DNA from: Nitrososphaeria archaeon
Lineage (GTDB): Archaea > Thermoproteota > Nitrososphaeria > Geothermarchaeales > JDFR-13
Assembly (NCBI GenBank): GCA_027078545.1
Contig: JALWXN010000004.1
Location: forward strand, 892,133-956,132
Length of the DNA: 64,000 nt
Reading direction: 5' to 3'
Of this stretch, positions 30,598 through 53,065 are shown piece by piece. The first letter of the stretch is position 1. Each line of letters begins with the position of its first letter. The position numbers were made by a program, and so were the translations under genes. The notes under the pieces were generated by a model. The model was given only the letters and a program-made list of their open reading frames with translations, made no database searches and was not told where the DNA came from.

Positions 30598-31062
30598 GCT
30601 CCCCAAGAGACTCTCAACATACCCCTCCTTAACACCCTCGGATACGATGTTGAGTATGAGCCTAGTATGGGTCCGGTCGACATACTCGATCCTCTGAACC
30701 TCCTTTATGAAGCTGTCCAGCTCACTCCTGGTGCGGAACCATGCATAGAGGGTTATGTCATACTCACCAGTAATGTCATACACGGCCTGGACATTAGGCA
30801 TCGATGCCAGTCGCTCCTCAACCTCCCTCAGGAAGCCGCCCCTAACCTTCACATCGATCATCACTGGGAAGATGTATCCAAGCTTCTCCAGGTCGATATC
30901 CACGGTATACCTCCTAATAACCCCCATGTCCTCAAGCCTCTTCCTCCTCGCCTCCACAGTTCCCACGGAGACGCCCAGCCTCCTAGAGAGTTCACGGCTA
31001 CTTATACGCCCCTCCCTCAGGAGGATCGAGAGGATCTTGAGGTCCAGCCTATCCAGCTCCAT
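30583..31062 (-). CDS. lrp: Lrp/AsnC family transcriptional regulator
   Basis: HTH LDRLDLKILSILLREGRISSRELSRRLGVSVGTVEARRKRLEDMGVIRRYTV followed by RAM domain; internal ATG 31062 used, the track's 73-aa N-terminal extension rejected. Confidence 0.8.
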   Translation of the reverse strand: MELDRLDLKILSILLREGRISSRELSRRLGVSVGTVEARRKRLEDMGVIRRYTVDIDLEKLGYIFPVMIDVKVRGGFLREVEERLASMPNVQAVYDITGEYDITLYAWFRTRSELDSFIKEVQRIEYVDRTHTRLILNIVSEGVKEGYVESLLGSLSTS

Positions 31063-31064
31063 AT

Positions 31065-31207
31065 GTATCTCTATATGCACCGCCCTACATAAACAAATGT
31101 CCAGTTTAGAGTCGACTAGATGGATGAACATTAAACATGTGTCTAGATCCGTTTTATGACTGACCCGTGAGAAGCTCTTTACATATACATCCATGGGGTG
31201 GTAATCC
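31065..31207. promoter_or_regulatory. divergent lrp / glnA promoter region
   Basis: TATA-like CTTTACATATACA at 31177-31189 (about 20-30 nt upstream of glnA TTG 31208) and minus-strand TTTGTTTATGTAG at 31087-31099 (about 25-35 nt upstream of lrp ATG). Confidence 0.3.
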
Positions 31208-37212: not shown

Positions 37213-39291
37213 TTGAACCGATACCTCTACCTACTATTATCCATACCAATACTCCTCCTACTGCCACAGACAGTGGTGACGGCTAACACCTATATAGTGC
37301 CGATAGACTACCCCACCATACAGGACGCGGTGGACAACGTACCGCCAGGATCCACGATAAGGATACTCGGAACAGTGGTGGAGAACGGGATAGTGATAGA
37401 CAAGACCCTGACAATAGAAGGCGGAGTGGTGGACTATGGAGATGACTGGGGCTTCTACATAAGGCGGGGAACAACCACCTTTAGGGACATCACACTCAGG
37501 GCCAGGTATCTCTGGTACAACAGTATAATCCCGCCGACATTCACATACTCAGCCTCGGCGGGCATAATAGCGATGGACTCCGAGGTAGTTATAGACAACG
37601 TCACTATCCATACCGATGGCCGTATCCAGGATAGGTCGGAGAAGATCTCCTACTACTACGGCATAGTCGGTAGGGACAGGAGCATAGTCAGGGGCGACGG
37701 GCTCAACATATCCGAGATGGATATAGGGATAGAGATGAGCGACACCCAGAAATCTATCACGCCCCAATGCTACCTGATATACACCGCATATACGAAGTGC
37801 CTAGTAGGCGGTGTCGACAAGAGTGTTACCCTAGACGTCTCTAACGTAACTATCCAGAGCGAGGTAGGCGTAGCCATATTCAGCATGTATCCAAATGACT
37901 ACTACAGGGTTAGGGACTTCAACATCACCGGTGAGATCCCCATCTATATAAGGAACACATTCAAGGACACTAGCAAGACCGACTTCTCCACATTCATCTT
38001 CGCCGGGGGAGAACTGAGGAGCATACCCGACGAGGGAAAGTTCATTCAGCCCTATGGAACAGGGGTATACATAGTATCGATGGGGATGACCGACTTCACG
38101 CTCAGTGACGCCCTGGTATATGGCGAGAGGTATGGAGTACAGCATCAGGAGGCGGGTGGAGAGGTCAAGTATACACGTTGGCGAATAGCGGTTGAGAGGA
38201 GCAGCATACTGGCATATACAAATGGGTTTAGGTATGACTCGGCCCAACCAAAGGCAACAGTATCTAACGATGTAGACGTCTTTATCAGGGATACGTTGAT
38301 AAACTCTTATGCCAGTACTGTCAGTGAGGGAATATTTATAACATCGACAAACCCGTTGCGGAACTATCTACATGTAGAGGTGATCAACACAAATATCAGC
38401 GGCTTTTATATAGGCCTATCATTCAGGTTCGACAGGATAAACATGTTCAACTTAACGATGCACCGTCTATTCTTCCTAAACCCGAGTGGATATGGACTCA
38501 GCGTATGGACAGTAACCTTCGAAAAGGGATATTTATGGGCAGGATATAGCCTACTATACAGCATAATAGTAATGACAGAGACAGACTACCCCTTCTACCT
38601 CTATGAGACGGTCTATGACGAGAAGAACTCCCTGATCTGGGGCAAGATAGAGATAGAGGTCTGGTGGACACTCCTGACAGAGGTATTCAGCAGTCTAACC
38701 AACAACCCGATCCAGGGAGCCACGGTAACCTATAACTGGGACATAGGCACAGCCTCAGGCCTCACCGACTCCGCTGGAAGATATACCTACCAGTTCCACT
38801 ACAAGTATGGAAACGGGCCTAGATATGGGCCGGGATATACCTTTGTAAACACCATATGGGTGGGCGCCAACTACTACGGAGTATCAGCGTCGACTACGCA
38901 TCTAACATACTTTGGAGACACATTGACGAGTCCCAGCTGGTATAGACACATAGACTTCTACCTACCCGCCCTGATCCTCAAGGTCCTAGGCTTCAGCCAC
39001 GACATGGGGACTACATACCTAGTCATAAGGGGTCTTGAGGGGGCCTTCATAGGCTACTACAGCTATACACCTGACGAGATAAGGGTTCCGCCGAGTATCC
39101 AAGACCTCTCCACAGGGTATAGGAAGTACCCCCTGAGGATAGCCTCGATAATCTTCCAGGGAGCCTATACAAGGGTCGATGCACAGATATTCTACGATGG
39201 CTATTGGCAGCCGACCACGATATATATTGGACGGGTAACCGGGATGGTCTGGAGCCCAGGCCCGGTAGACTTCAGGGGCTGGCTAGGATAG
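37213..39291 (+). CDS. secreted protein with predicted right-handed beta-helix repeats
   Basis: TTG start then signal peptide MNRYLYLLLSIPILLLLPQTVVTA; repetitive Gly/Asn/Thr-rich beta segments typical of parallel beta-helix surface proteins. Confidence 0.55.
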   Translation: MNRYLYLLLSIPILLLLPQTVVTANTYIVPIDYPTIQDAVDNVPPGSTIRILGTVVENGIVIDKTLTIEGGVVDYGDDWGFYIRRGTTTFRDITLRARYLWYNSIIPPTFTYSASAGIIAMDSEVVIDNVTIHTDGRIQDRSEKISYYYGIVGRDRSIVRGDGLNISEMDIGIEMSDTQKSITPQCYLIYTAYTKCLVGGVDKSVTLDVSNVTIQSEVGVAIFSMYPNDYYRVRDFNITGEIPIYIRNTFKDTSKTDFSTFIFAGGELRSIPDEGKFIQPYGTGVYIVSMGMTDFTLSDALVYGERYGVQHQEAGGEVKYTRWRIAVERSSILAYTNGFRYDSAQPKATVSNDVDVFIRDTLINSYASTVSEGIFITSTNPLRNYLHVEVINTNISGFYIGLSFRFDRINMFNLTMHRLFFLNPSGYGLSVWTVTFEKGYLWAGYSLLYSIIVMTETDYPFYLYETVYDEKNSLIWGKIEIEVWWTLLTEVFSSLTNNPIQGATVTYNWDIGTASGLTDSAGRYTYQFHYKYGNGPRYGPGYTFVNTIWVGANYYGVSASTTHLTYFGDTLTSPSWYRHIDFYLPALILKVLGFSHDMGTTYLVIRGLEGAFIGYYSYTPDEIRVPPSIQDLSTGYRKYPLRIASIIFQGAYTRVDAQIFYDGYWQPTTIYIGRVTGMVWSPGPVDFRGWLG

Positions 39292-39381: not shown

Positions 39382-41295
39382 ATGGAGATGCTTTGGCACC
39401 CGCCCCAGGAGCTCGTCGAGAACAGTAATGTGATGAGGGTTATTAGGGAGCTTGGGCTGGACAGCTATGAAGACCTACTCAGGAGGAGTATAGAGGACCA
39501 TGAATGGTTCTGGGGATGGCTCCCAGAACTCCTAGGAATAGAGTGGTTCAGACCCTTCGACAAGGTCGTCGACTATAGCGAGGGCGTCGAGTGGGCTAGG
39601 TGGTACATAGGCGGCCTGATCAACGCTACATACAACGTGCTGGATAAACATATGGATAGCGAGGTGGAGAGGAGAACCGCCTTCATATGGCAGGGTGAGG
39701 ACGGATCGGTGGTGGAGTATAGCTATAGGAGGCTCTACAGCGAGGTCAACAGGCTAGCATCAGCCCTTAGGAGGAGGGGTGTGGAGAGGGGGGAGACCAT
39801 AGCCATGTATATGCCGATGATGCCGGAGACCGTGGTCGTCCTACTAGCAGCTATGAGGATCGGGGCGGTGCCCACACCCATATTCTCCGGCTTCGGTAAG
39901 GAGGCCGTTAGAACCAGGGTGGAGGACGCCCACTCCAGACTCATATTCACAACCGATGTTGGGTATAGGAGGGGGCGTAGGATAGACCTCCTAACAACCC
40001 TTAGAGAGGCGGTCGAGGGCCTAGACTATGTGGAGGACATCATAATAGTTAAGAGGGCCGGCTCAGATGGGACGGACTATAGAGACTTTATAGCCGAGGG
40101 CGGGTCATACCAGAGGCCCGAGGAGCTAGACCCCAACCACCCCGCCCTACTCCTATACAGCTCCGGAACAACTGGTAAGCCCAAGGGAATAGTGATCTCA
40201 CACATAGGCGCTTTGATCCAGCCGAGCAAGGAGATATACTTCAACCTAGACCTCAAGCCGGAGGACCTCTTCATGTGGATAACCGATATTGGCTGGATGA
40301 TGGGGCCATGGCAGATAATCGGTGTTGGAAACCTAGGGGGGACCCACGCAATCATGGAGGGGGCTCCAGACTATCCCGGGCCGGACAGGATATGGAGGTT
40401 CGTGGCTGAGCACAGGGTGACGATTCTAGGCGGCTCGGCAACACTCTTCCGGATGTTCAAGAAGTATGGGAGGAGATATGTCGAGATGCACGACACATCC
40501 TCTATAAGGATACTCGGGAACACGGGTGAGCCGATAGACGAGGACACCTGGAGATGGGTGATGGAGGTTATCGGGAGGTGGAGAGCCCCCATGATAAACC
40601 TGAGCGGGGGGACAGAGATATTTGGATGCCTAGTCCTACCCTCCCCCACAGTCCCCCTGAAGCCCTCAACCGTCTATGGACCCGGCCTAGGGATGGATGT
40701 AGACGTATTCAACGACGATGGGGAGCCCGTCAGGGAGGAGGTTGGATACCTAGTCTGCAAGACCCCAGTACCATCCATGACCAGGGGCTTCTGGCGAGAC
40801 CCGGAGAGATACCTCGAGACCTACTGGACCAGGTGGGAGGGCATCTGGTACCACGGCGACTGGGCCTACATCGACAAGGACGGCTACTGGTTCCTACTGG
40901 GTAGGGCCGACGACGTGATCAAGATAGCTGGGAAGCGCCTAGGCCCAGCTGAGGTAGAGACAATACTCAACTCACACCCCATGGTCGCCGAGTCCGCCTG
41001 TATAGGCGCCCCAGACCCGTTGAAGGGTGAGAAGCTGGTCTGCTTCGTAAAGACCGTTGGTGAGCCCGGGCCTGGACTAATAGATGAGCTAAGGGATATG
41101 GTGGGGGAGAGGCTCGGGAAGCCCTTCAGACCGGAGGAGATCTACATAGTCCCAGACCTACCCAGGACGAGGAGCGGCAAGATTATGAGGCGGGTTCTTA
41201 GGGCTATATATACGGATAGCCCGGTCGGCGACGTATCAACCCTGGAGAACCCGGAGGCACTCGAGGGGGTCAAGGAGGCTCTAGGACGCGCCTGA
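39382..41295 (+). CDS. acs: AMP-forming acyl-CoA synthetase (acetyl- or propionyl-CoA synthetase)
   Basis: AMP-binding YSSGTTGKPKG, adenylate-domain motifs, C-terminal PRTRSGKIMRR; 637 aa. Confidence 0.85.
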   Translation: MEMLWHPPQELVENSNVMRVIRELGLDSYEDLLRRSIEDHEWFWGWLPELLGIEWFRPFDKVVDYSEGVEWARWYIGGLINATYNVLDKHMDSEVERRTAFIWQGEDGSVVEYSYRRLYSEVNRLASALRRRGVERGETIAMYMPMMPETVVVLLAAMRIGAVPTPIFSGFGKEAVRTRVEDAHSRLIFTTDVGYRRGRRIDLLTTLREAVEGLDYVEDIIIVKRAGSDGTDYRDFIAEGGSYQRPEELDPNHPALLLYSSGTTGKPKGIVISHIGALIQPSKEIYFNLDLKPEDLFMWITDIGWMMGPWQIIGVGNLGGTHAIMEGAPDYPGPDRIWRFVAEHRVTILGGSATLFRMFKKYGRRYVEMHDTSSIRILGNTGEPIDEDTWRWVMEVIGRWRAPMINLSGGTEIFGCLVLPSPTVPLKPSTVYGPGLGMDVDVFNDDGEPVREEVGYLVCKTPVPSMTRGFWRDPERYLETYWTRWEGIWYHGDWAYIDKDGYWFLLGRADDVIKIAGKRLGPAEVETILNSHPMVAESACIGAPDPLKGEKLVCFVKTVGEPGPGLIDELRDMVGERLGKPFRPEEIYIVPDLPRTRSGKIMRRVLRAIYTDSPVGDVSTLENPEALEGVKEALGRA

Positions 41296-41802
41296 AGCCA
41301 AGAACCTGGAGGCCTCCCTCCTAGCTACGACCCTATCCAGTAGGAGGAGGGCCACACCTATACCCATTATCGGACCCCCAAAGACAATGGTAAAGTCGTA
41401 GTCAGGCTCAACCAAGATGTCCAGCAGCAACCTCGGCCTAGAACCATTCACCAACTCCTTGGTCGGCACCAGCTCGATATAGACATAGTAGGAGCTGGGA
41501 ACATCAGCCGTATACTCAAACTTCTCCAAACCCTCGACAACCCCTTCAAACAGCTTCTCAGGACCACCGCCAAACACACTCCTATAGATAGTTACGTAGG
41601 CCTCAGCCTCACTGATGATGCTTATCCTAACAACACCAGAGGTTAGCGAGACGTAGTTAACACCCTTCTCAGGGATTATCTCGTGGAACTCGTAGAGGAA
41701 GCTCTCCGAGATAGGCTCCTGAACACCCCCCAACACCCCCATTAGGACTATGGCTACACCGATGACGATGAAATATATCGCCAATACCCTCAACCAGATC
41801 AA
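41281..41802 (-). CDS. hypothetical membrane protein (third gene of ABC-2 operon)
   Basis: N-terminal TM helix IWLRVLAIYFIVIGVAIVLMGVL and C-terminal TM; 4-nt overlap with upstream permease. Confidence 0.45.
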   Translation of the reverse strand: MIWLRVLAIYFIVIGVAIVLMGVLGGVQEPISESFLYEFHEIIPEKGVNYVSLTSGVVRISIISEAEAYVTIYRSVFGGGPEKLFEGVVEGLEKFEYTADVPSSYYVYIELVPTKELVNGSRPRLLLDILVEPDYDFTIVFGGPIMGIGVALLLLDRVVARREASRFLASGAS

Positions 41803-42758
41803 TCCACCTCAACCCTCCTCAGGAAATAAGCAGCTAGGAGGATAACCATGAGGGATAGGCCAAGGATGACAAGGAGATAGACGGATAGGGCAACCAGGGA
41901 TCCGGGGGCATCCACATAGGGAGGAATTCCATAGGGGCTCATCATCAAGCCTCCTAGGAAACCCTCCCTCTCGAGTTCATCCAGTATGCCTAGTAGTGCT
42001 ACATAGCCAATGAATGGTGATGCTGTGGGCTCACCAAATTGAGGATTACCACTCCTTGTGAGCCATCTCTCAATATGTATGACAAGCTGTGTAAAGACCA
42101 TGTAGAGCACTGCACTCGAGAGTATGAAGGCAGGTATCTCCCTCCTCACGACCAAAGCGACGGAGAATGCTATGGATGACATCAGTATCAGCTCGGGGAG
42201 ACCCATTATAGACGCTAACAATAGAGAGGAATCGGGACGATAGAAGATGCTACCCACAACGAAGTAGGTCGAGGTCACGTAGAAAGCCACCATAACGACG
42301 TTGAAGAGAATCCTTCCAACGAAATACTCATCCCTGGTTATCGGTAGAGTCATATACCTCTTAAACACACCAGGCCTCAGCATCGACGAAGCCTCCATAG
42401 ACACATAAGCCGCGACCCCAAGTATCAGGAACATAGGCTCAATAGATACTCTCCAGACGGTCAGTAAGTGATGCGTAAAGCCGAAGATACCACTACGAAC
42501 CAAGATGTAGAGCTTCCTCTCAAGATATGCCAATCTATTCAGATTCATAACCACTTCATCGCCAGTGATTAGAGGGTCTCCGGATACCAAGATCTCTTCT
42601 AGACTTATTCTACTCCCTATACTTATCAAGCCACTTGTAACCAGTGGATAGAACATCAGTATCGTCGAGCCTACGAGAATCAGGAGATTGAGGAGGTTCA
42701 GCTGGCCTATCTCCATCCTCATAACCCTAAGTACAGCCCTAAGCCTCATCCCCACCAC
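41799..42758 (-). CDS. ABC transporter permease (ABC-2 type)
   Basis: Multi-pass membrane protein directly downstream of, and overlapping, the ABC ATPase gene. Confidence 0.6.
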   Translation of the reverse strand: MVGMRLRAVLRVMRMEIGQLNLLNLLILVGSTILMFYPLVTSGLISIGSRISLEEILVSGDPLITGDEVVMNLNRLAYLERKLYILVRSGIFGFTHHLLTVWRVSIEPMFLILGVAAYVSMEASSMLRPGVFKRYMTLPITRDEYFVGRILFNVVMVAFYVTSTYFVVGSIFYRPDSSLLLASIMGLPELILMSSIAFSVALVVRREIPAFILSSAVLYMVFTQLVIHIERWLTRSGNPQFGEPTASPFIGYVALLGILDELEREGFLGGLMMSPYGIPPYVDAPGSLVALSVYLLVILGLSLMVILLAAYFLRRVEVD

Positions 42759-43683
42759 CCAGCCGGAAGAACACCTGGGTCAAAGGATCCGGATAGAGGG
42801 AGACCTCCCAAACAGAGACCCCTAGATCACGGCAGAGCTCAAGAACCTCCATCAACGACTTACGTGGATCCCTCAGGAATATGTGGAGGCCAAGCTCATC
42901 TATATGATACTCCTCCACACCCCCTATTGTTGAGAGGCCTTCAACCAAGCCCTCCACATCACCATCCAGCCTGAAGAGGTAGTGGAACCTATCTAGACGT
43001 GAGAGGAGCTCCCTAAAGCCTCCAGACGCTACTATCCGTCCACTCCTTATGAAGACGAAGTTGTCGCAGATCGGTAGGAGGTGTGGCAGTATATGGGACG
43101 CTATGATAAAGCTCTTACCACTCCTGGACAGCTCCCTAATCAGGCCGACAAAGGTGATTATACTCTCTACATCCACGTTTGAGAAGGGCTCGTCAAGGAT
43201 GTAGAGGTCGACATCAGGGTTTAGAAGAGTTCTAGCCATCAGGAGTCTCTTAAACATACCCGTCGAGTAGCCTCCAACCCGCATCCCCAATGCCCAGTCA
43301 ATCCCGACCATCCTAGCAAGCTCGAGGATACGCCCCTCATGATCATCGATACCCATGGCCTGAGCCTCCACTTTCAACAGCTGATAGCCAGTCAGCCAAC
43401 CTGGAAACCCGATCTCATCAGGCATGACACCCATCCTGCTAAAAACCTCAGCCCTCTCCAACCAGGGGTCAAAGTCGAAAACCCTCACTACACCACTATC
43501 AGGCCTGATAAACCCACTAACAATATTGATCGTAGTAGTCTTACCAGCCCCATTAGGCCCTATAAAACCAAGGACACCCCCACCAAACTCCAGGGACAAC
43601 CCGTCCAGAGCCCTGACCTCACCAAAGCTCTTATACACATCCCTAAGCAGAAGAATCAAATGAAACCACCCCATCAAGACCAA
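42739..43683 (-). CDS. ABC transporter ATP-binding protein
   Basis: Walker A GPNGAGKTT, signature-like YSTGMFKR, Walker B LYILDEP, H-loop ASH. Confidence 0.85.
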   Translation of the reverse strand: MVLMGWFHLILLLRDVYKSFGEVRALDGLSLEFGGGVLGFIGPNGAGKTTTINIVSGFIRPDSGVVRVFDFDPWLERAEVFSRMGVMPDEIGFPGWLTGYQLLKVEAQAMGIDDHEGRILELARMVGIDWALGMRVGGYSTGMFKRLLMARTLLNPDVDLYILDEPFSNVDVESIITFVGLIRELSRSGKSFIIASHILPHLLPICDNFVFIRSGRIVASGGFRELLSRLDRFHYLFRLDGDVEGLVEGLSTIGGVEEYHIDELGLHIFLRDPRKSLMEVLELCRDLGVSVWEVSLYPDPLTQVFFRLGGGDEA

Positions 43684-43827
43684 TACTGCTCATGACAAAA
43701 TAAATCATCCATTAAAGACCTAACAAAAATGTATCTATGGAGACTATACCACAAACTACAAGTATATACAAAAAAGGCAGGGATAAGTACACAAACAAAT
43801 AAGTTATATGGGATTTAATTACATATC

Positions 43828-44349
43828 ATGAGAACCCTGATTATACTAGTGACAATAATATTAAGCCTACTAATCATAGGCAACATCTATGTACAGGGAA
43901 GGACAGCTCCAGAGTCCATCGACCCTAGATATGATGAGGACATGTATTATACGACGAGATACTTTCATTATACACCTTACTATATGTATGGAAAAGTCGT
44001 TGGATGGTACGTACCCAGGGATTCCGGCTACTTTAGGACTATACACGCTGGATCCGGTGCAGATCGATATAACAGAACACTGAGTTATTATAACCATATA
44101 GTTATGCTTCGTTTATGTGGAAGGGCCTTCGACTCCAATGGAAACATGATTGCCAATCCCTGCGTTACTGAAACCGCCACCCGCCAAGATCGGTATTTAT
44201 ATGAGGTGATTACCGTTGACTATGGAGCTGTAAGGGCGGTCAAGGCCCAGACCTATGTTTATGCCGTCTTCCACCATTATCATGATAGTACATTCGTAGT
44301 GTCATTTTCAGATAGCATTCCGTACAGCTACGTAGAGGTTAACTACTAG
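43828..44349 (+). CDS. small secreted Tyr-rich hypothetical protein
   Basis: Signal peptide MRTLIILVTIILSLLIIGNIYVQG; gene is markedly AT-richer than its surroundings. Confidence 0.5.
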   Translation: MRTLIILVTIILSLLIIGNIYVQGRTAPESIDPRYDEDMYYTTRYFHYTPYYMYGKVVGWYVPRDSGYFRTIHAGSGADRYNRTLSYYNHIVMLRLCGRAFDSNGNMIANPCVTETATRQDRYLYEVITVDYGAVRAVKAQTYVYAVFHHYHDSTFVVSFSDSIPYSYVEVNY

Positions 44350-44354
44350 GCGAG

Positions 44355-45218
44355 ATGAGGGGCCTAGCTATATCCCTCACCCTCCTATTTTTATTTATAC
44401 AGCCACACCCATACTTGATACCCCTCGACGATGAAGGCATATATATGAAATACTCTGGATTCTTCGGGCTTTACACTCCACTTTACGGGGTTTATAGTGG
44501 AGAGCCCCTTGAGCCAGAAATACTGGACGCTACCCCCTTTGTCGAAGGTGAATTGTTGGTAAGGCTCGATAAAAACTATATTGAATATGCCATCTACACC
44601 ATAGAGATCAGGTTTAAGGGGAGTTACGAGGCCCTTGAGAGGCTGGGCCTAGGCACCAGGTTCACTGTCTCTGTAAAGGTTTACAGGGAAGGGGGCATGA
44701 TAGACTTCCTGGGCCATCGCATCCCCTTCCTATTCGTAGCCGATCTTGACTATCTCTCCAATGGCCCCCATGAGATTCGAATATCTATAAACGGGACCTC
44801 CAACATCTCGATCAGTTTGCTGGAGCTTGAGGATAGGGTTGAGGAGATTGTTCTGAAGGGAGCATACTCTGTCCAGACCTTCGGATTGGACAATGGCCAC
44901 AAGTATCTGGCTGGTATATTTAATGACAAGGATAAGAGGATACTCGCCACTTATTCATATCGTGGATACGCCAGATTCTACAACTTCTTGGTTACGCCAC
45001 TGCTGAGGATGGGTATAGTCATCACCTTCCATGGCAACCTAGTAGATACTAATCTAGAGGGGGTTCAGAAACAGCCAAGCCCACTAGAGATGTATAGATC
45101 ACTACTATCCTCACTATTTGGGCCATTCGGGAGTGTCCTCTACTATACCAGCCTCATCACACTTTTAGGTCTGGTGATAGTGGCACTAGCTAAGCTAATT
45201 AGGAGGCTCAGAGGATGA
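44355..45218 (+). CDS. secreted hypothetical protein with C-terminal TM anchor (tandem paralog 1)
   Basis: Signal peptide MRGLAISLTLLFLFIQP; C-terminal TM LITLLGLVIVALAKLIRRLRG; clear similarity to the following ORF (e.g. LPFLLVIDMDYIS vs IPFLFVADLDYLS). Confidence 0.55.
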   Translation: MRGLAISLTLLFLFIQPHPYLIPLDDEGIYMKYSGFFGLYTPLYGVYSGEPLEPEILDATPFVEGELLVRLDKNYIEYAIYTIEIRFKGSYEALERLGLGTRFTVSVKVYREGGMIDFLGHRIPFLFVADLDYLSNGPHEIRISINGTSNISISLLELEDRVEEIVLKGAYSVQTFGLDNGHKYLAGIFNDKDKRILATYSYRGYARFYNFLVTPLLRMGIVITFHGNLVDTNLEGVQKQPSPLEMYRSLLSSLFGPFGSVLYYTSLITLLGLVIVALAKLIRRLRG

Positions 45219-45283
45219 GGAGATCAAGCCCTTGTTCATGATACCCCTCGCCCTAATAGTAACGAGTATAGCCGGGCCCCCAC

Positions 45284-46096
45284 ATGCTACCGCTACATGA
45301 CGAGGATACATTCTTCAGATATGAAGGATATTTCAGTGTTTATGAACCGCTTGGGGGGTTGTATGACTTGGATATTAATATTTCCTGGATCGATTTTAAG
45401 GGGTCGTTACTCGTGACTGTTGAGAAGAATTTTGTGGACTATGTGGTGTATGGCCTAGTTGTTGAGCCGTATGAAGAGATCCCTCCTGAGCTGGAGATGT
45501 TGATAGGTGTTAAGACTCTCGTAAAGGTCTCTAGGGTGGGTGGGAACATCTATATCGATGGTCAGGAGCTACCCTTCCTCCTAGTCATAGACATGGACTA
45601 CATCTCCAACGAGAACCCAGTTTATAACGTATCATTTGACGGCCTCACAAACTATACTATTTCCAACCTACGGCTGGTGGAGTCGGAAGGGGGGCTGATT
45701 CTAGAGACGAATCTCAGCATGCTATCTACGATCGTCCCAATAGGCCATGGATACCCATTCTCAATAACTTCACAGGGGAAGTATACCACCCGGATCGGTG
45801 TATATTCCCGGTATGGCTATGCAGTGAGTTACTCATATCTCATGATCCCCTTTTTCGAGAAGGGGCTCGCGATAGACTTTGTTGGTTGGCTCGTAGATAC
45901 CAATGCTGAGAGGGAGCCCGTGAATATGGTGGCGGTTCTCCTCGAGGGCTACCTTAGGTTCCTGGTGTTCAGCCTTGGGCCTCTGGGCATCGCGATATAC
46001 TATGGCACTATGATTCTCGCCGCTGGTCTAGTAGCCGCCTTTGTCTACTGGCTTGTCAGGAGGCTTAGGTGGGGTTTTGGCGTGGCCGCCACCTAG
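45284..46096 (+). CDS. secreted hypothetical protein with C-terminal TM anchor (tandem paralog 2; signal peptide encoded in a different frame, possible frameshifted pseudogene)
   Basis: Paralogous to 44355-45218 but lacks an in-frame signal peptide. A signal-peptide-like ORF MIPLALIVTSIAGPPHATAT lies at 45238-45300 in the -1 frame; C5 run at 45277-45281 is the likely shift site. Confidence 0.45.
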   Translation: MLPLHDEDTFFRYEGYFSVYEPLGGLYDLDINISWIDFKGSLLVTVEKNFVDYVVYGLVVEPYEEIPPELEMLIGVKTLVKVSRVGGNIYIDGQELPFLLVIDMDYISNENPVYNVSFDGLTNYTISNLRLVESEGGLILETNLSMLSTIVPIGHGYPFSITSQGKYTTRIGVYSRYGYAVSYSYLMIPFFEKGLAIDFVGWLVDTNAEREPVNMVAVLLEGYLRFLVFSLGPLGIAIYYGTMILAAGLVAAFVYWLVRRLRWGFGVAAT

Positions 46097-46970
46097 ATAG
46101 TCTCCTGTCGAACTCCTCGTACTCCTCGTATCCTATTAGTCTGTAGAACTCCCTCCTCTCCATCAGCCTGTCTAGGAAGGGTTTCTGCGTCCCGTGCTCC
46201 CTGAGGGCCTGGTATATCTCCAACGCGTTCTTGGCGTTGGCCCTGAATACGGTGACTGGGAAGACGACGAACTTCACCCCTACACTCCTAAATTCCTCGT
46301 AGCTGATGTATGGCGTCCTCCCAAACTCCGTCATATTGGCTAGGATGGGTGCGTCGACCTCCTCGACGAAGACCCTATACTCCTCTAGAGTCTCCAGGGC
46401 CTCCGGGAATATTATGTCCGCCCCGGCCTCCACGTATAGCTTGGCCCTCCTCAGAGCCTCCTCCAGCCCATATACATTCCTCGCATCAGTCCTCGCCACT
46501 ATCAGGAAGTCCCTACTCCTCCTAGCCTCCACAGCCGCCCTGATCTTCCTGGCCATATCTATAGGGTCCACCAGCTCCTTCCCGGAGAGGTGTCCACACT
46601 TCTTGGGGAGGACCTGGTCCTCGATCTGTATAGCGGCTGCCCCCGCATCCTCCAGCTCCCTCACGGCTCTAGCAACGTTTAAGACCTCCCCAAAACCTGT
46701 GTCGGCATCGACTATCAGTGGGATACCTACGACCTTAGTGATCAGCCTTGTGAAGAATACGAGTTCGGAGAGGGTGATAAGCCCTAGATCAGGCATGGCT
46801 AGGCTCCCGGTCAGGGCAGCCCCGCTCAGATATATAGCCCTATAGCCCACCTTCTCAGCCAGCAGGGCTGTGAAGGGGTTGTATACACCGGGGACTATAT
46901 AGGCCTCCCCATCCTCCACCAGCTCCCTCAGAAGCGGCTTTACGTCACCAGTGGGTAGGAGATGCCTCAT
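46065..46970 (-). CDS. prpB: 2-methylisocitrate lyase (isocitrate lyase/PEP mutase family)
   Basis: Family motifs IVDADTGFG and KKCGH, TIM-barrel length about 300 aa; adjacent to prpD. Confidence 0.8.
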   Translation of the reverse strand: MRHLLPTGDVKPLLRELVEDGEAYIVPGVYNPFTALLAEKVGYRAIYLSGAALTGSLAMPDLGLITLSELVFFTRLITKVVGIPLIVDADTGFGEVLNVARAVRELEDAGAAAIQIEDQVLPKKCGHLSGKELVDPIDMARKIRAAVEARRSRDFLIVARTDARNVYGLEEALRRAKLYVEAGADIIFPEALETLEEYRVFVEEVDAPILANMTEFGRTPYISYEEFRSVGVKFVVFPVTVFRANAKNALEIYQALREHGTQKPFLDRLMERREFYRLIGYEEYEEFDRRLSRWRPRQNPT

Positions 46971-46971
46971 A

Positions 46972-48354
46972 CTAGATCACCAGTAGCTCGAGGAGCTCGT
47001 AGTAGTTGTGCTTCTCGAAGTTCATCGTGACCTCTATAATCTCCTCTATCACGTCTTCGGGGTAGTAGGGCCTGAGTAGTCGGAAGACCTTCTCCCTCAG
47101 TAGGTCGTCGACGTTGTGGCCGGAGCCTGGGTATCCCCTCGGCCTTGTGACGAGGCTCTCTAGGACGGTGCCATCCCTAAGCCTGACAACCACCCTGTTC
47201 GGCACCTCCCTCGGATAGAGCCTATCGAGCTCCGGGTCGACCTTGACATCCATCTTGGCCATAACCCTCTTGATATCCTCGTCCCTAAGCTTATCGTCGC
47301 TATAGGCGTCTAGCCAGATATCGCCGTGTAGAAGGGTGTATGCCACTATATATGGGAGGCTGTGGTCAGCCGTCTCCCTATTCTCCGGCCTCCACTTCTC
47401 GGGATGCTTAACTATTATGTCGTAGGTAGCCTGCACAGTATAGACCTCCACCCTCTCAATCTCCTCCGGCCTGAGGGGCCTACCACCAAGGAGCTCGAGC
47501 ACTGCGTCGACAGCCGACTGGGCGTGATACTCCACCGGGTGGAACTTCATATACGTCCTCAGTATACCGGTGGGCTCAGGCCTCTCCCTAAGCTCCTTTA
47601 TAGGGCCCGGGTCGAACTCTATACCCAGCTGGTTAATAAACCCCATCTCACCCGTGAAGGGCTCCGCAGGCCCCTCATAACCCGCCCTAGCCAGGTATGT
47701 CGCGTACATCGCGTGTCTACATGCATCGGCGGCTGCCGAGGCCTTCCACATCGTGATCCTACCCGCACGGGTCTGCCTCAGAGCTATGTGGGGGACGGTC
47801 GCTATGGCCAATGCCTCTGCAGCCATCTCCTTAGAGAGTTTTAATAGGTTTGAGAGGGCGGCCACAGCTGCTATCATGGTGAAGTTGACGTGGTCCCACC
47901 CCTTCACACGGAGGGAGGCAGAGTCGCATAGACGGACACCCACCTCATAACCAACTGCTATAGCCGTCAATAGATCGGCCTCCGGACTCCCAGACTCCTC
48001 CAACGCGGCAGCCAAGACACCTATCATGTCGCTGGGGTGTAGGGGCTCCTTCGATAGGTAGGTATCGTTGAAGTCGAGGGCCCGGGTCATGGTGCTGTTT
48101 AGGAAGCCGGCATACTCTGGGAGGGTTGTGAAGTGGGTGAACCATATTGTCGAGCCGAGCTCCAAGGGGTATAGGCCTATGAACGCCTTCCTCAAGACCT
48201 GGACGGGCTTGAAGGGTAGAGAGGCTGCCGAGACGGCTATGGAATCTAGGAGGCGCCTCTTAGCCTCCAGTACAGCCTCTATAGGTATGTCCTCCCAGGA
48301 TATGCTCGTTGCATACTCCGCGATAGCCTCCTGTATATAGTCGTACCGACTCAT
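46972..48354 (-). CDS. prpD: 2-methylcitrate dehydratase (MmgE/PrpD family)
   Basis: MmgE/PrpD-like N-terminus SWEDIPIEAVLEAKRRLLDSIAV and overall length; internal ATG 48354 used, upstream extension in track rejected. Confidence 0.8.
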   Translation of the reverse strand: MSRYDYIQEAIAEYATSISWEDIPIEAVLEAKRRLLDSIAVSAASLPFKPVQVLRKAFIGLYPLELGSTIWFTHFTTLPEYAGFLNSTMTRALDFNDTYLSKEPLHPSDMIGVLAAALEESGSPEADLLTAIAVGYEVGVRLCDSASLRVKGWDHVNFTMIAAVAALSNLLKLSKEMAAEALAIATVPHIALRQTRAGRITMWKASAAADACRHAMYATYLARAGYEGPAEPFTGEMGFINQLGIEFDPGPIKELRERPEPTGILRTYMKFHPVEYHAQSAVDAVLELLGGRPLRPEEIERVEVYTVQATYDIIVKHPEKWRPENRETADHSLPYIVAYTLLHGDIWLDAYSDDKLRDEDIKRVMAKMDVKVDPELDRLYPREVPNRVVVRLRDGTVLESLVTRPRGYPGSGHNVDDLLREKVFRLLRPYYPEDVIEEIIEVTMNFEKHNYYELLELLVI

Positions 48355-48430
48355 GTAAACAGAATCCCAGAGAGCGTTATATGAATAGTGGCTATCGAGG
48401 AATATTTGTAAAAGAGGGGGAGAATAGTGG

Positions 48431-49144
48431 CTATGCACTGAGCCCGCTTAGGAACTCGCTGAGCGGGACATCCCTCACCTGGGAAGCCCAGCTGGGTACT
48501 GGAACGTCACCCGCAAAGGGTTTGAGGCTAACTCTCCCATCCTCCACCTTGAAGACTAGTAGGTCTGGGATGTATACCGGCTTATCCCTGAGGAGGCCGG
48601 CCATAAACGCCATATTGGATGGTATACCCTCAGGACCCATCCTCCCGTTTATCGCTATTATGACCGTCTCCCCAGGCCTGTATAGCACGTCCGTACTCTT
48701 CACAGCCATCTTCCCAGTATCGGGGTCGTAGCCATATGACCAGAGGAAGATGTAGAACCTATCCTCTGGGAACTCGCCCCTGAGAACCTCCTTCACCTCC
48801 AGGAGTACAAGTGTATTCAAACGCTTGACCTCCCGTGAGCCCAGCCTCTCAACAGTTATGTAGGTGCTCAGCTCCCTAACCTCAGCCAATACGAGGGCTA
48901 TACCCCTATCATTCAGAAACTCCTCAAGATCCTCTGGGAAGACGTCATGCCTAATCAGCGGCTCCGTAGTTACCACATACTCGCTTGGTAGGGGGCTCTC
49001 ACCCAAGGGTCTAGGCCCCTCTCCAGGGACATGTTGATAGACGGTGACGCTGGGAATATCCTGCTGGAAGAGGGATACGCCCGGGAATAATAGGATCAAC
49101 GTGACAGTCACTAGGACCACCGCTATAAGTGGGAGGCCCTTCAT
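48431..49144 (-). CDS. hypothetical membrane-anchored protein
   Basis: N-terminal TM/signal anchor MKGLPLIAVVLVTVTLILLF; no recognisable domain; sits between prpC and prpD. Confidence 0.45.
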   Translation of the reverse strand: MKGLPLIAVVLVTVTLILLFPGVSLFQQDIPSVTVYQHVPGEGPRPLGESPLPSEYVVTTEPLIRHDVFPEDLEEFLNDRGIALVLAEVRELSTYITVERLGSREVKRLNTLVLLEVKEVLRGEFPEDRFYIFLWSYGYDPDTGKMAVKSTDVLYRPGETVIIAINGRMGPEGIPSNMAFMAGLLRDKPVYIPDLLVFKVEDGRVSLKPFAGDVPVPSWASQVRDVPLSEFLSGLSA

Positions 49145-49230: not shown

Positions 49231-50466
49231 ATGGTTAAGCCATTCCCCAAAACAGTTGTCGACATAGCCTATACCCCGGAATATATCGCCGGCCTAGGGA
49301 TGAATATCTACATGGCGGAGGAGAGGGTGTCTATCTATAGGGGGTTGAAGAACGTCTATGTGGCTGAGTCGAGGATCTGCCTGATCGACCATGAGAGGGG
49401 GAAGATCTACTACTATGGATATGACCTGGATGAGCTGGCCCAGAAGAGTAGTTATGAGGAGGTCCTCTACCTACTCCTCCATGGAAGGCTACCCACAAGG
49501 AGGGAGTATCAGGAGTTCCTGGATAGGATAAGGGGGTCATTGCGGCTAGAGCCTGAGATCCTAGACGTTATGAGACGGATCCCAAGGGATATCGATATGA
49601 TGGAGGCCCTACGAACAGTGGTCTCATACATCGGTAACCTCCGGAGCCGGGATCCGGAGTATACGAGGGATGATGTAGTGGACTACACCGTCGACCTCGT
49701 GGCAAAGATGCCCAGCATAATAGGGGGGCTATACAGGATGTGGAGGGGTTTGGAGCCCCTCGAGCCCAGGGAGGATCTAAGCCTCGCCGCCAACCTCCTA
49801 TACCTCATAACCGGGAGGGAGTATGACGAGAGGGATGTTAGGGGCCTAGACATGAGCCTAATCCTCTATGCAGAACACGGCATGAACGCATCCACCTTCG
49901 CAGCCGTAGTGGTCGCATCAACAGGTAGCGACTACTACTCCTCCATAGTCGCGGGTATAGGGGCGCTGAGGGGCCCACTACATGGGTACGCCAACACCGG
50001 TGCATTGGAGCAGTTCCTAGAGATAGACGACCCCTCAAATGTGGAGAGGTGGTTCAAGGAGAATATCGAGAGTAGGAGGAGGCGGCTCATAGGGTTTGGC
50101 CACAGGCTATACAGGATACACGACCCGAGGGCGAAGCACTACAGGAGGTGGCTAGAGGAGAATAGGGAGAGGTTTGACGAGGAGACCCGGCGGGTATACG
50201 AAACAGCTATGAAGCTATACAACGTGGCTATGAACAGCTTCCTAGCGGAGAAGGGGATATACCCCAACTGCGACTACTGGAGCGCACTACTATACTACGC
50301 CCTGAAACTCCCAAAGGAGGTCTACACACCAATATTCGCAATGTCACGAATAGCCGGGTGGAGCAGCCACATAGCTGAGTACCGAGAGGACAACATACTG
50401 ATAAGGCCGAAGGCATACTACGTCGGCGAGAGAGACAAAAAGTACGTGCCCCTTGATGAGAGGTAG
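49231..50466 (+). CDS. prpC: citrate synthase family protein (likely 2-methylcitrate synthase)
   Basis: Citrate synthase motifs LHGYANTGA (catalytic His region), GFGHRLY, MSRIAGWSSH; divergent from the prpD-prpB unit. Confidence 0.85.
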   Translation: MVKPFPKTVVDIAYTPEYIAGLGMNIYMAEERVSIYRGLKNVYVAESRICLIDHERGKIYYYGYDLDELAQKSSYEEVLYLLLHGRLPTRREYQEFLDRIRGSLRLEPEILDVMRRIPRDIDMMEALRTVVSYIGNLRSRDPEYTRDDVVDYTVDLVAKMPSIIGGLYRMWRGLEPLEPREDLSLAANLLYLITGREYDERDVRGLDMSLILYAEHGMNASTFAAVVVASTGSDYYSSIVAGIGALRGPLHGYANTGALEQFLEIDDPSNVERWFKENIESRRRRLIGFGHRLYRIHDPRAKHYRRWLEENRERFDEETRRVYETAMKLYNVAMNSFLAEKGIYPNCDYWSALLYYALKLPKEVYTPIFAMSRIAGWSSHIAEYREDNILIRPKAYYVGERDKKYVPLDER

Positions 50467-50470
50467 ACAG

Positions 50471-51697
50471 TTATAGCTTAACCAAGACTATTTTGGAGGA
50501 GCCAATCTGGGCCTTATACAACACTACATATACTTCTCCATTATTCTCAACAAGGCCTAGCAGTCTATAGCTCTCACTGATGACCTCGTTGTCAAGCACC
50601 CCGCCACCAGGTATCTTCACCAGTGCCAGATAGGTATCGGCGAAACGCTGTCCAACCAGCAGATAATTATCACCTCCTATGTGTATCATGCTCGTTATCA
50701 GTACTGCCTCCTCAAAGGGACTTGGTAGGATTCCGACTGCCGGGGATAGGGCCTCGAGATCTATGAACTGGACCTCGCTACTTTGATCGGCATAGATCAC
50801 CGTGAAGAATATCTTTCCATCGGCGGCTCCCAGGGGAAGTACGTTTACGACGGGTGTCTCCCCACCCTGTATAGGGTATTCGAAGACTGTCTTGTTCTCA
50901 ACTATGTTATACACCATGACCTTGAAGCTGGACCCGTATCTAGTTACCGCGATAAAGTGGTCACCCACTACCCTGAACCTTATGGCACTATCAATCCTAG
51001 TTAGGAACTTCTTCCCCGAGTCATCCACAAGGTATATCTCGTCATAGGGATATAGGGTCACGACCCTAACCAGCAAATCATCACCAAAACGATATAGGCT
51101 TATAGGGGAGATACCGAAGTAGTAGGATCCTTCTACGACCAGCTCACCATCTACTAGACGTATAATACTAACATTACCATCGACCACAGCGATGATACGA
51201 TCCTCCACGACAAAGACTCTCGGGAAGGCACCGCCATCCAGTGTAATAGATGCCACTAACTCCCAGTCAATTCCATATACCCCGATCCATAGCTCGCTCT
51301 CCAAGTCGTTTGATATTAGGGCTGGTACCACCACCATATCGTCTAGGAACCGGGGCTCCAGAAATCCCAGTCTCGAATATTCGAGATGGGTGGGAAAACT
51401 CTCTAGAGTGCGGGTATCTACCTGACCATCACGTAGCTCGACGAGTACTGGATACCCCCCGGGTTCACCATCCAGACCCACGATATATAGTTTACCGTCA
51501 ACACTCCCAACGTCGCTTGGGAAATTAAGGGTTTTAACAACGATACTCTCTAGAGTTATCCCCGACACGGGAGGCCCAGTAGCTGGTATGCCAGGGAATA
51601 TTGGGAGCCAGCCCATCAACACTATCAGGATGACTATCAGACCCATGGCCACGAAGGCAGCGATTGGGAGCCTCCTATACCGATGATTTTCACCCAC
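50471..51697 (-). CDS. hypothetical membrane-anchored beta-rich protein
   Basis: N-terminal TM LPIAAFVAMGLIVILIVLMGWL, beta-strand-rich remainder, no motif recognised. Confidence 0.4.
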   Translation of the reverse strand: MGENHRYRRLPIAAFVAMGLIVILIVLMGWLPIFPGIPATGPPVSGITLESIVVKTLNFPSDVGSVDGKLYIVGLDGEPGGYPVLVELRDGQVDTRTLESFPTHLEYSRLGFLEPRFLDDMVVVPALISNDLESELWIGVYGIDWELVASITLDGGAFPRVFVVEDRIIAVVDGNVSIIRLVDGELVVEGSYYFGISPISLYRFGDDLLVRVVTLYPYDEIYLVDDSGKKFLTRIDSAIRFRVVGDHFIAVTRYGSSFKVMVYNIVENKTVFEYPIQGGETPVVNVLPLGAADGKIFFTVIYADQSSEVQFIDLEALSPAVGILPSPFEEAVLITSMIHIGGDNYLLVGQRFADTYLALVKIPGGGVLDNEVISESYRLLGLVENNGEVYVVLYKAQIGSSKIVLVKL

Positions 51698-51832: not shown

Positions 51833-53065
51833 CTATGTGCCTCTTGGCAGTCCTAGTACGTGTCTCGCTATGTAGTTCAGGGCGAGTTGCTGGGTTACCG
51901 GTGCTAGTCTGAGTAGGTTTATCTCTCTCCACCACCGCTCTACATCGAACTCCCTTGCATAGCCGTAGCCTCCGAAGGTCTGCATAGCCCAGTACACCGC
52001 CTCTATCCCCGCCTCTATAGCTACGTACTTCGCTATGTTGCTGTTCCTCCCAACCTCTGATAGGCCTGTAGACCTCGAGACGACCTCGTCAAAGCTCTTC
52101 GGATCCCTCGGCGGGGGCAGCCTGTCATAGGTTGCCGCGGCTCTATATGCTAGGAGGCGTGCCCCCTCGAGCATGGCGTAGGACCTGGCTAGTGGGTGCT
52201 GGACAGCCTGGTAGGAGCCTATTGGCCGGTCGAAGACGACCCTGTTCTTGGCATACTCGACAGCCCTTGACAAGGCTAGGTATCCGATGGCAACAGCACC
52301 TATTGAGAAGCCTATCCTCTCAGGGTTGAGTATGTCGAGGAGGACGTACCAACCAGCGTCGAGTGGGCCTAGGAGGTTCTCCTCGGGTATCCTTAGATCC
52401 TCTATGTAGACCTCGCAGGACTTGCTATAGTTTATCCCATGCTTAGGGATGGGGCTATACCTCACATTCTTATTCGGCATATCCACTATGAAGAGTGATA
52501 GGCCGAGGCTCCTCCTCCCAGCCTCCTCGGGGGTCTTAGTGCGGGCGACGAGTATGAAGGCCCGAGCCCTATCTATCCCGCTTATGAAGACCTTCCTCCC
52601 ATTAACGACGTACTCGTCACCCTCCTTCACGGCTGTCGTCTTTATCGATAATGTGTTTGACCCTACGTCCGGCTCGGTAAGGGCTAGGGCCCCCTCGATC
52701 CTCCCCTCCGCTATGCCTGGGAGATACTTCTCCTTCTGCTCCTTAGTACCGAACCTAGCTATGGGCAGTGCCAGGAATATCTCGGTAAGCATTATGTACC
52801 ATACACCGGCCATCCCCGCACCTCCCCTCACGAGGCCCTCTATAGCGACGGCCAGCTCCTCCAGTCCATAGCCGCTCCCCCCATACTCCTGGGGTATAAC
52901 GATACCCATGAACCCCTGCTCGGCTATCGCCCTGAAGAACTCCTCCGCAAACTCCTCCCTAAGATCCTTCTCCCTCCAGTACTCGGGTGGGAACTGGCTT
53001 GAGACCTCGTAGGCCGTCCTGTATATAAGCTCCTTATCCCCTGATAGGTCGGGAGGTATCTCCAT
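51833..53065 (-). CDS. acyl-CoA dehydrogenase
   Basis: ACAD N-, middle- and C-domains (ALTEPDVGSN, GRKVFISG, C-terminal helical domain with QTFGGYGY). Confidence 0.85.
   Translation of the reverse strand: MEIPPDLSGDKELIYRTAYEVSSQFPPEYWREKDLREEFAEEFFRAIAEQGFMGIVIPQEYGGSGYGLEELAVAIEGLVRGGAGMAGVWYIMLTEIFLALPIARFGTKEQKEKYLPGIAEGRIEGALALTEPDVGSNTLSIKTTAVKEGDEYVVNGRKVFISGIDRARAFILVARTKTPEEAGRRSLGLSLFIVDMPNKNVRYSPIPKHGINYSKSCEVYIEDLRIPEENLLGPLDAGWYVLLDILNPERIGFSIGAVAIGYLALSRAVEYAKNRVVFDRPIGSYQAVQHPLARSYAMLEGARLLAYRAAATYDRLPPPRDPKSFDEVVSRSTGLSEVGRNSNIAKYVAIEAGIEAVYWAMQTFGGYGYAREFDVERWWREINLLRLAPVTQQLALNYIARHVLGLPRGT

Follow-up and report, generated by a model that had tools for sequence, protein, structure and literature searches.

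A probable replacement-type hypervariable envelope locus in Geothermarchaeota, combining a putative ABC-2 exporter operon with divergent genes for exported proteins

We analysed a 64-kb stretch of DNA from a Nitrososphaeria archaeon (contig JALWXN010000004.1; the whole stretch is called the window below), in which a putative ABC-2 exporter operon lies back to back with three genes named g1, g2 and g3. The AT-rich part that carries g1 to g3, at about 43.7-46.1 kb, is referred to as the islet. The two divergent operons occupy 41281-46100 and are separated by a 144-nt intergenic region (Table 1), which presumably contains both archaeal promoters; the g1 ATG is preceded at a distance of about 22 nt by a TTATAT element (43804-43809). 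The flanking genes belong to ordinary metabolism and encode an acyl-CoA synthetase (ACS, 39382-41295), a PrpB-like lyase of the PEP-mutase/ICL family (46065-46970, convergent to g3), PrpD (46972-48438), a citrate synthase and an acyl-CoA dehydrogenase. The loci used for comparison are designated by L numbers, among them the congener L006 (WAKB01000001.1, Candidatus Geothermarchaeota) and L002 (ENA JOHN19-1 scaffold_6542).

Table 1. Genes and features of the exporter and surface-protein locus (positions are those of the window)
Feature	Position	Strand	Remarks
Small accessory membrane protein, 173 aa	41281-41802	(-)	Last gene of the ABC operon; 4-nt overlap with the permease gene
ABC-2 type permease, 319 aa, six transmembrane segments	41799-42758	(-)	Predicted from hydropathy; the core, about 41860-42639, is hypervariable segment 1
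DrrA-like ABC ATPase, 306-314 aa depending on the start codon	42739-43683	(-)	Conserved core between the two variable segments
Divergent intergenic region, guanine-plus-cytosine (GC) content about 0.35	43684-43827		Read from the sequence and the GC profile
g1, 173 aa	43828-44349	(+)	Predicted to be exported; Tyr-rich
Hypervariable segment 2	43920-45899	(+)	From just past the g1 signal peptide to about g3 residue 205
g2, 287 aa	44355-45218	(+)	Predicted type-I membrane-anchored protein
g3 body, open frame of 270 aa	45284-46096	(+)	With the out-of-frame signal peptide (45238-45281), the whole feature spans 45238-46096
C5 homopolymer	45277-45281	(+)	One C more than the C4 of relatives
TGG codon in place of the g3 stop TAG of relatives	46070-46072	(+)	

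To characterize the exporter operon, we compared its products with family models. The ATPase and permease genes overlap by 20 nt and form one operon. The ATPase matched Pfam ABC_tran (E 4.7e-14, above the gathering score) and aligned with the NCBIfam model TIGR01188 drrA over model positions 1-301 of 302 (E 6.2e-42); since its score of 143.9 bits is below the curated cutoff of 312, the protein is classed as DrrA-subfamily-like and not as an equivalog. The next-best NCBIfam model was GldA (E 4.8e-33), also below its curated cutoff. Hydropathy analysis of the permease revealed six hydrophobic segments. The window permease itself had no Pfam match and a weak DrrB match only (E 0.006), and three of four orthologues matched Pfam PF12679 ABC2_membrane_2 (best E 1.8e-6), with a match to PF13346 ABC2_membrane_5 in addition for one orthologue. 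A DrrA/CcmA-subfamily ATPase is thus found next to a separate six-segment permease of the ABC2_membrane family, as in DrrAB-like ABC-2 systems, and the operon is predicted to encode an ABC-2 exporter of the DrrAB/NosFY type. The small accessory protein has two hydrophobic segments in the hydropathy profile (residues 6-24 and 137-155), which would enclose an extracytoplasmic domain of about 110 aa. Its orthologues occupy the same position in L006, L086 and L093, with 37% identity to the distant ones, and it had no match in Pfam, NCBIfam or PDB sequences. The initial annotation of this region had proposed a divergent operon of an ABC ATPase, an ABC-2 permease and a small membrane protein, and these results agree with it.

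The full-length alignment to the DrrA model with GldA as the next model, the ABC2_membrane_2 matches of the permease orthologues and the overlapping genes recall the DrrAB/NosFY/GldAFG (type V) ABC-2 exporters, although all scores of the module fell below the curated cutoffs. Similarly, the accessory protein with its N- and C-terminal transmembrane anchors recalls GldG, a protein several hundred residues long, but is only 173 aa in size and has no detectable homology to it. Judged by its sequences, the module as machinery belongs to the ABC-2 exporters as a new member, distant from the known ones and with partner proteins that are novel. Several candidates from the searches with the ATPase were set aside. 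Its PADLOC matches reflected generic ABC similarity only, L007 proved to be an unrelated NatAB-like pair, and a scan of GTDB species-representative genomes returned one orthologue (L006) together with 79 generic ABC ATPases, among which the nearest from outside the Geothermarchaeota (40% identity) lay in an unrelated NatAB-like operon. A pattern from the ATPase C-terminal domain gave 600 matches in JGI metagenomes, none of them a relative, and a 29-mer DNA pattern scan of the same metagenomes matched only unrelated Walker-A regions.

The first gene of the divergent operon, g1, encodes a protein whose N-terminus is hydrophobic at residues 4-22 by hydropathy and would form a signal peptide or an anchor. 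Cysteines C97 and C112 are invariant, and the C-terminal motif IPYSY(V/I)EVN(Y/W) is conserved, except in L093. Orthologues of g1 were found upstream of g2 in L004, L006, L087, L092 and L093. The protein is a near-ORFan with only 2 matches among 5.8e9 proteins, its AF2 model from a 2-sequence alignment (pLDDT 39) was unusable, and by its sequence g1 is outside any described family.

In tandem with g2 lies its paralog g3 (34% identity, E 2e-37), as the initial annotation had stated. The predicted parts of g2 are a signal peptide, an ectodomain of about 230 aa with an all-beta fold, a motif LVDTN...GP(F/L/Y)G, a C-terminal transmembrane helix and an RRLR tail, with the LVDTN and GP(F/L/Y)G motifs conserved ahead of the helix in both g2 and g3. 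We also noted that the C-termini of the g2 family (g2, 45095-45218; g3, 45970-46069), with GP(F/L/Y)G, transmembrane helix and RRLR, have an archaeosortase/PGF-CTERM-like layout; no NCBIfam sorting-domain model matched the g2 or g3 C-termini at E<=1, and the archaeosortase gene itself was not searched for in the genome. A further observation concerns a short motif directly after the signal peptide that is common to the otherwise unrelated g1 and g2/g3: IDPRYDEDMYY in g1 (43915-43953), LIPLDDEGIYMKY in g2 (44412-44453) and MLPLHDEDTFFRY in g3 (45284-45322). It was recovered by hhalign over 16 columns (E 0.022, probability 2%) and may serve in processing or docking, or be fortuitous; beyond these 16 N-terminal columns, hhalign found no relationship among the g1, g2 and small-protein families.

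Like g1, g2 is a near-ORFan, with 2-3 matches among 5.8 billion proteins, and a HMMER profile search of 1.84 billion cluster representatives yielded six credible members. A match to P0011, a 4413-aa bacterial repeat protein in which g2 profile positions 107-182 were matched in ten repeats (summed E 1e-6), was judged to be compositional (acidic beta-repeats) and not homology. Searches of Pfam, NCBIfam, PHROGs and PADLOC returned nothing specific for g1, g2, g3, the small protein or the window permease, no PDB sequence matched the profiles of the four novel families with an E below 0.1, and a search of the BFVD viral folds with the g2 model gave nothing significant. The g2 model, of moderate confidence, resembled LolA/LolB/YmcC-like open beta-barrels (PDB 4fvs, 3fzx, 9tp6, 8t5j) at 5-10% identity, with no Foldseek match at E <= 0.001. 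True transmembrane barrels scored equally well against it, and the resemblance would therefore be that of a curved antiparallel sheet, not a placement in the LolA/LolB/YmcC family.

To define the state of g3, we compared it with its counterparts in related loci. In the window, a signal-peptide-like sequence, MIPLALIVTSIAGP, starts at 45238 but in another frame than the body, whereas L002/L003 have a C4 run and an uninterrupted open reading frame (ORF) with the intact form MIPLALIVTSIAGPHMLPLHDED. The extra C in the run thus shifts the frame and uncouples the signal peptide from the body, and the change of the stop codon adds 8 residues, carrying g3 into the 3' end of the PrpB-like gene. L001, a separate Logan assembly of SRR14510437, was 100% identical to the window over 14 kb, including the C5 run. 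We also considered programmed frameshifting or phase variation at the run. Only two states (C5 and C4) were seen, and the stop codon has been lost alongside the frameshift, so that plain damage to the gene explains the data more simply. The g3 copy of this genome was thus most likely damaged recently, and the gene itself is a duplicate confined to this genus. The initial annotation had described three secreted or membrane-anchored proteins; this agrees with the N-terminal signal of g1 and with the signal peptide and C-terminal transmembrane helix of g2, but not with g3, which as encoded has no signal peptide.

We then assessed the conservation of the locus. Orthologues of the five gene types co-occur in the same order and with the same metabolic flanks in every related locus recovered (L002/L003, L004/L091, L006, L086-88, L093 and partly L092). 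In L086-88 (GC 0.37) and L093 (GC 0.34) the small protein, permease and ATPase are followed, across the divergent junction, by g1 and one g2-like gene; in L086 and L093 this module lies between ACS and the PrpB-like gene, with PrpD next in L086. On the short L092 contig (GC 0.33), only a truncated ATPase, g1 and g2 are visible. The same module and flanks are therefore present in at least four deep Geothermarchaeota lineages (L086-88, L093, the genus with 53% GC and partly L092), at GC contents from 0.33 to 0.53. The initial annotation had suggested a module that was either horizontally acquired or fast-evolving at the cell surface, with patchy distribution as a point to check and conserved synteny across relatives as evidence against acquisition; such synteny is what we found, and each related locus that we recovered carried the module between ACS and PrpB, if only partly in L092.

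The proteins of the module differ widely in their rate of divergence. Between the window and L086/L087, amino acid identity was 70.6% for ACS, 76.4% for PrpB, 61.6% for PrpD and 72.4% for citrate synthase in the flanks, 52.8% for the ATPase, and only 37.2% for the small protein, 33.8% for the permease, 40.4% for g1, 29.0% for g2 and 26.8% for g3. Among close haplotypes, the ratio of nonsynonymous to synonymous divergence (dN/dS) was 0.34-0.47 for g1, g2 and the permease and 0.27 for g3, compared to 0.10-0.16 for ACS and the ATPase. These results show that the ATPase, predicted to be cytoplasmic, keeps pace with the neighbouring genes, whereas the evolution of the putative permease, of the accessory protein and of g1 and g2/g3 is several times as fast. 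The description of the region as a fast-evolving surface module was thus borne out.

The close relatives, whose flanks are 88-97% identical at the nucleotide level, fall into four haplotypes. Haplotype A is that of the window, with g1, g2 and the broken g3. Haplotype B (L002/L003) carries a 309-nt deletion (window 43900-44208) with poor alignment just upstream, which leaves a g1 remnant of 65 aa. Haplotype C (L004/L005/L091) contains g1 and a g2::g3 fusion, in which g2 up to window position 45151 is joined to the end of g3 from 45998, one repeat unit being deleted. Haplotype D (L006) has g1' and a single g3', a gene of the g2 family, at a GC content of about 0.32. In every close lineage a different gene is broken or reshaped, namely g3 in A (frameshift and stop loss), g1 in B (5' deletion) and g2 and g3 in C (fusion). 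L002 also has frame-breaking indels in ACS (8 nt, 39877-39884), the small protein (46 nt, 41347-41392) and the permease (2 nt, 41982), and its permease gene also lacks 24 nt in frame. Either the assembly is faulty at these points, or genes are decaying widely in that population.

To evaluate the base composition of the islet, we compared its genes with the remainder of the window. The window has a GC content of 0.534 and the islet one of 0.43-0.49. Against a background of 45 other window ORFs with a GC content at third codon positions (GC3) of 0.66 +/- 0.05, g1 (GC 0.427, GC3 0.454, z -4.1) had the lowest GC3 of the 51 ORFs in the window, followed by g2 (GC 0.468, GC3 0.542, z -2.4) and g3 (GC 0.487, GC3 0.587, z -1.5), the last of which on its own lies within the tail of the background. 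Codon usage relative to the pooled other ORFs deviated with z = 3.7 (g1), 3.0 (g2) and 2.5 (g3), in line with the different codon preferences reported at first. The AT-rich stretch initially placed at 43684-46100 is real, but the dip is wider, since the permease is also low (GC 0.482, GC3 0.553, z -2.15) and the ATPase has a GC3 of 0.59, and the window has comparable dips at further genes for membrane or secreted proteins (50471-51697, GC3 0.523; 38250-38700, GC 0.41-0.45). The islet orthologues in haplotypes B and C had the same GC3 as the window islet. Across 15 genes, GC3 was negatively correlated with dN (rho -0.73, p 0.002).

Between the window and haplotype C, nucleotide identity was 86-91% in the islet and 89-92% in the flanks. 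The islet has diverged about as much as its surroundings, which indicates that it was inherited together with its neighbours. No tRNA gene and no Rfam family at the gathering threshold was found anywhere in the 64 kb, the flanks held no meaningful repeats but only short chance ones, no integrase appeared among the Pfam-scanned genes that lie within about 10 kb of the islet, and g1 and g2 had no homologues in phage, plasmid or IMG/VR viral-contig collections. With respect to the hallmarks of genomic islands, the locus thus deviates in composition but shows neither patchy distribution nor signs of mobility. The AT-richness of the window islet would be an old and stable property common to the islets of sister species, arising from weak codon selection in fast-evolving genes and possibly from ancient input from AT-rich relatives, and not a mark of recent foreign origin.

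The comparison with L006 revealed two sharply bounded segments of high divergence. Identity between the window and L006 was 0.88-0.95 in the flanks, fell to 0.48-0.67 in the permease core (about 41860-42639), returned to 0.88-0.97 in the ATPase between the segments, and dropped to 0.12-0.57 over about 43920-45899. The edges of the permease core, at about 41860 and about 42640, are sharp, and the steps fall inside conserved gene ends. The ATPase retained 94% amino acid identity with a synonymous divergence (dS) of 0.40, the same as in the flanks, whereas the permease showed 62% identity, a nonsynonymous divergence (dN) of 0.275 and a dS of 1.08 (flank dS 0.30-0.57); for g3 dS reached 2.45 and for g1 it was saturated. 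Synonymous divergence in the replaced segments was thus 2.7-fold above that of the flanks, or saturated. As a control, the gene at 50471-51697 (-) showed 74.5% identity to L006 with a dN of 0.138 and a normal dS of 0.379, as for fast protein evolution without allele replacement. Base composition followed the same boundaries: within the g3-like gene of L006, the replaced part had a GC content of 0.321 and a GC3 of 0.279, and the native C-terminal part 0.502 and 0.538, respectively. The GC content of the replaced segment, about 0.32, is comparable to the 0.33-0.36 of L092/L093, and the cassette layout of L006 (g1' and one g2-family gene) is that of the AT-rich lineages.

The close haplotypes also differ from each other in a mosaic manner. 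Haplotypes C (L091) and D (L006) were 99% identical in PrpB/PrpD, over about 1.4 kb of the right flank, and 91% identical in the 5' part of the ATPase, yet about 48% identical, and unalignable, in the islet. In the 5' part of the ATPase, haplotype C is closer to the window (95%) than to L006 (91%). At least two radically different islet versions may thus be present inside what looks like one species. From these patterns we infer that in L006 the permease core and the g1-g3 segment were replaced, by homologous recombination, with homologous alleles of an AT-rich donor, and the GC content of the L006 segment favours such an import over very old alleles maintained within the genus. Horizontal transfer, which the initial annotation had proposed for the islet, is not found in the window, but probably occurred in another form in L006.

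Taken together, these results point to a vertically inherited, Geothermarchaeota-specific module, composed of a putative ABC-2 exporter operon and a divergent operon predicted to encode a soluble exported protein (g1) and one or two membrane-anchored, beta-rich proteins (g2, with or without g3), which probably forms a replacement-type hypervariable envelope locus. On this reading, L006 would be a clear-cut instance of alleles imported across a GC gap of about 20 points at a surface locus in Thermoproteota. Mechanistically, alleles of the exposed parts may be exchanged by homologous recombination, with the conserved ATPase and the conserved gene ends serving as anchors, and the variability may be sustained by surface selection exerted by viruses or competitors. 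Selection on the exposed parts would account for the variation and the joint replacement of the permease core and the secreted proteins, and for the retention of the ATPase. The exporter would move a probably hydrophobic or envelope-bound substrate across the membrane, and the anchored, open-beta-barrel-like g2/g3 and the secreted g1 may act with it on the outer face.

As an evolutionary unit, this arrangement resembles the replacement flexible genomic islands, which were defined for Alteromonas and other aquatic prokaryotes and are 7-70 kb in size (PMC4119200, citing Lopez-Perez et al. 2014). Both occupy a fixed site with fixed flanks, carry deeply divergent genes of similar roles for surface-exposed products, have a lower GC content and are exchanged, here probably, by homologous recombination. 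The islands exist in different versions within one species, and L091 and L006 may carry such versions of the present locus. At the present locus, the location and flanks are the same and the content is deeply divergent with similar assigned function; exchange is indicated by the sharp steps in divergence and GC content, the raised dS and the mosaic haplotype C, and is judged by these patterns. Compared with the islands as presented in the same source, however, the locus covers only about 2-3 kb in two segments, its variants are alleles of the same protein families and not different sets of glycosyltransferases, its host is an uncultured hyperthermophile lineage, and the membrane subunit of a transporter is among its variable parts.

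Several points weigh against the interpretation as a replacement-type envelope locus. The close haplotypes number only four, and all are metagenome assemblies; as even ACS has frame-breaking indels in L002, faulty assembly may account for part of the lesions. The L006 alleles do not lie nearer to L086, L092 or L093 than those of the window, and long-maintained balanced alleles within the genus may account for them as well as import would. The correlation between GC3 and dN was no longer significant when the permease, g1 and g3 were left out (rho -0.50, p 0.09). None of the homologues of g1, of g2/g3 or of the small protein is annotated with an activity, and a coupling of these proteins to the exporter would follow only from the strict co-occurrence and the joint replacement in L006.

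A more specific version of this interpretation is that the locus represents an undescribed archaeal self/non-self or virus-interface system, in which matched exposed sets (permease core, g1, g2/g3) would exist within Geothermarchaeota species as discrete and deeply diverged allelic types and be traded as cassettes, around a constant ATPase, across lineages that differ widely in GC content. We regard this as conceivable, though rather doubtful.

An alternative that we consider unlikely is that the module is decaying and largely dispensable, its AT-richness and variability resulting from relaxed selection and AT-biased mutation. The different lesion in each close lineage, the indels in the L002 permease and small protein, the raised dN/dS of 0.34-0.47 and the negative correlation of GC3 with dN would all fit such a decay. 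However, dN/dS remains well below 1, and this is also the case in the deeply divergent L006 alleles (permease 0.25, g3 0.17). Motifs, paired cysteines and invariant residues have been preserved between lineages in which the flanking enzymes share only 62-76% identity, and the module is kept in all sampled lineages. Moreover, decay cannot account for a dS that is at least 2.7-fold higher inside segments with sharp edges.

The combination of an exporter with an anchored surface protein also raises the possibility of an archaeocin producer-and-immunity locus, which we judge distinctly unlikely. Here g1, and perhaps g2/g3, would be a secreted or vesicle-borne antimicrobial, the exporter and the accessory protein would provide self-protection, and the anchored g2/g3 would serve as a LanI-like binding protein. 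In lantibiotic immunity, LanFEG and LanI combine an ABC-2 exporter with a membrane-anchored extracellular protein (PMC4828448, PMC5786555), and the present locus has the same architecture, with an ABC-2 exporter, a putative anchored and beta-rich extracellular protein, and a predicted secreted product encoded alongside. Matched toxin and immunity specificities would also predict the joint replacement of permease and secreted proteins around a retained ATPase in L006. Two haplotypes are found within what looks like one species, and a lantibiotic-protection ATPase model matched the ATPase with E 2.9e-28. This last match, however, reflects generic ABC-2 similarity and is below the model cutoff. 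The likeness to LanFEG and LanI would be one of analogy only: g2/g3 have no detectable sequence or fold relation to LanI, no sequence or fold match to LanE or LanG was found, the predicted anchor of g2/g3 is a C-terminal transmembrane helix and not a lipid, and lantibiotic biosynthesis genes are absent, as are modification or processing genes. Furthermore, g1, with about 150 mature residues, matched no toxin family, and L002 combines intact g2/g3 with an apparently broken permease and small protein, a poor fit to simple immunity logic.

Diversifying selection acting in place, for example for evasion of viruses that use the surface proteins as receptors, would account for variable parts that are surface-exposed next to a conserved cytoplasmic ATPase. 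On its own and without recombination, it is very unlikely to have produced the observed pattern. The L006 segments show raised or saturated synonymous divergence and a GC3 down to 0.28, the changes in the permease are conservative and spread through the transmembrane helices instead of being concentrated in loops, and haplotype C is nearer to the window in the 5' part of the ATPase yet 99% identical to L006 in the right flank. Finally, a recently acquired foreign islet beside a resident ABC operon, for which the GC and GC3 below the window background, the ORFan proteins with almost no database relatives and the AT-rich allele probably imported at this locus in L006 might speak, is hardly credible given that at least four deep lineages have these genes in the same position, the about equal divergence of islet and flanks from haplotype C, the same GC3 in the islets of sister species, and the lack of a tRNA gene, flanking repeats, a Pfam-scanned integrase (within about 10 kb) and phage, plasmid or viral-contig homologues.

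Other features of the window were recorded alongside. The ABC/surface module sits inside an apparent methylcitrate-cycle (propionate) cluster (window 39382-41295, 46065-48438, 49231-50466 and 51833-53065), and the same embedding in a propionate cluster was seen in the AT-rich relatives L086/L087 and L093. The gene at 50471-51697 (-) encodes a 408-aa membrane protein with no Pfam match, and in L086/L087 a 407-aa gene adjoins that of a 222-aa ABC ATPase. The gene at 37213-39291 (+) encodes a 692-aa secreted protein without a confident domain; it contains the local GC trough at 38250-38700, and in L002 the gene has a frame-breaking 67-nt deletion at 38406-38472. The most deviant codon usage in the window was that of the ORF at 30667-31092 (+) (z 7.3, GC at first codon positions 0.70), which had no Pfam or Rfam match and may not be a real gene.

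Geothermarchaeota are uncultured archaea of deep-sea vents and the subseafloor, and we know of no description of their cell envelope. The locus described here is a module conserved across this clade with three protein families (g1, g2/g3 and the partner with two predicted transmembrane segments) that have no described relatives. It would show on a small scale how alleles of a surface locus are replaced in Thermoproteota, with import across a 20-point GC gap. In genomes of this kind, AT-rich, ORFan-filled patches can be old resident loci, which matters for the prediction of genomic islands from base composition. If the allelic types reflect pressure from viruses or competitors, they would offer a ready marker for population structure and host-virus dynamics in vent metagenomes.

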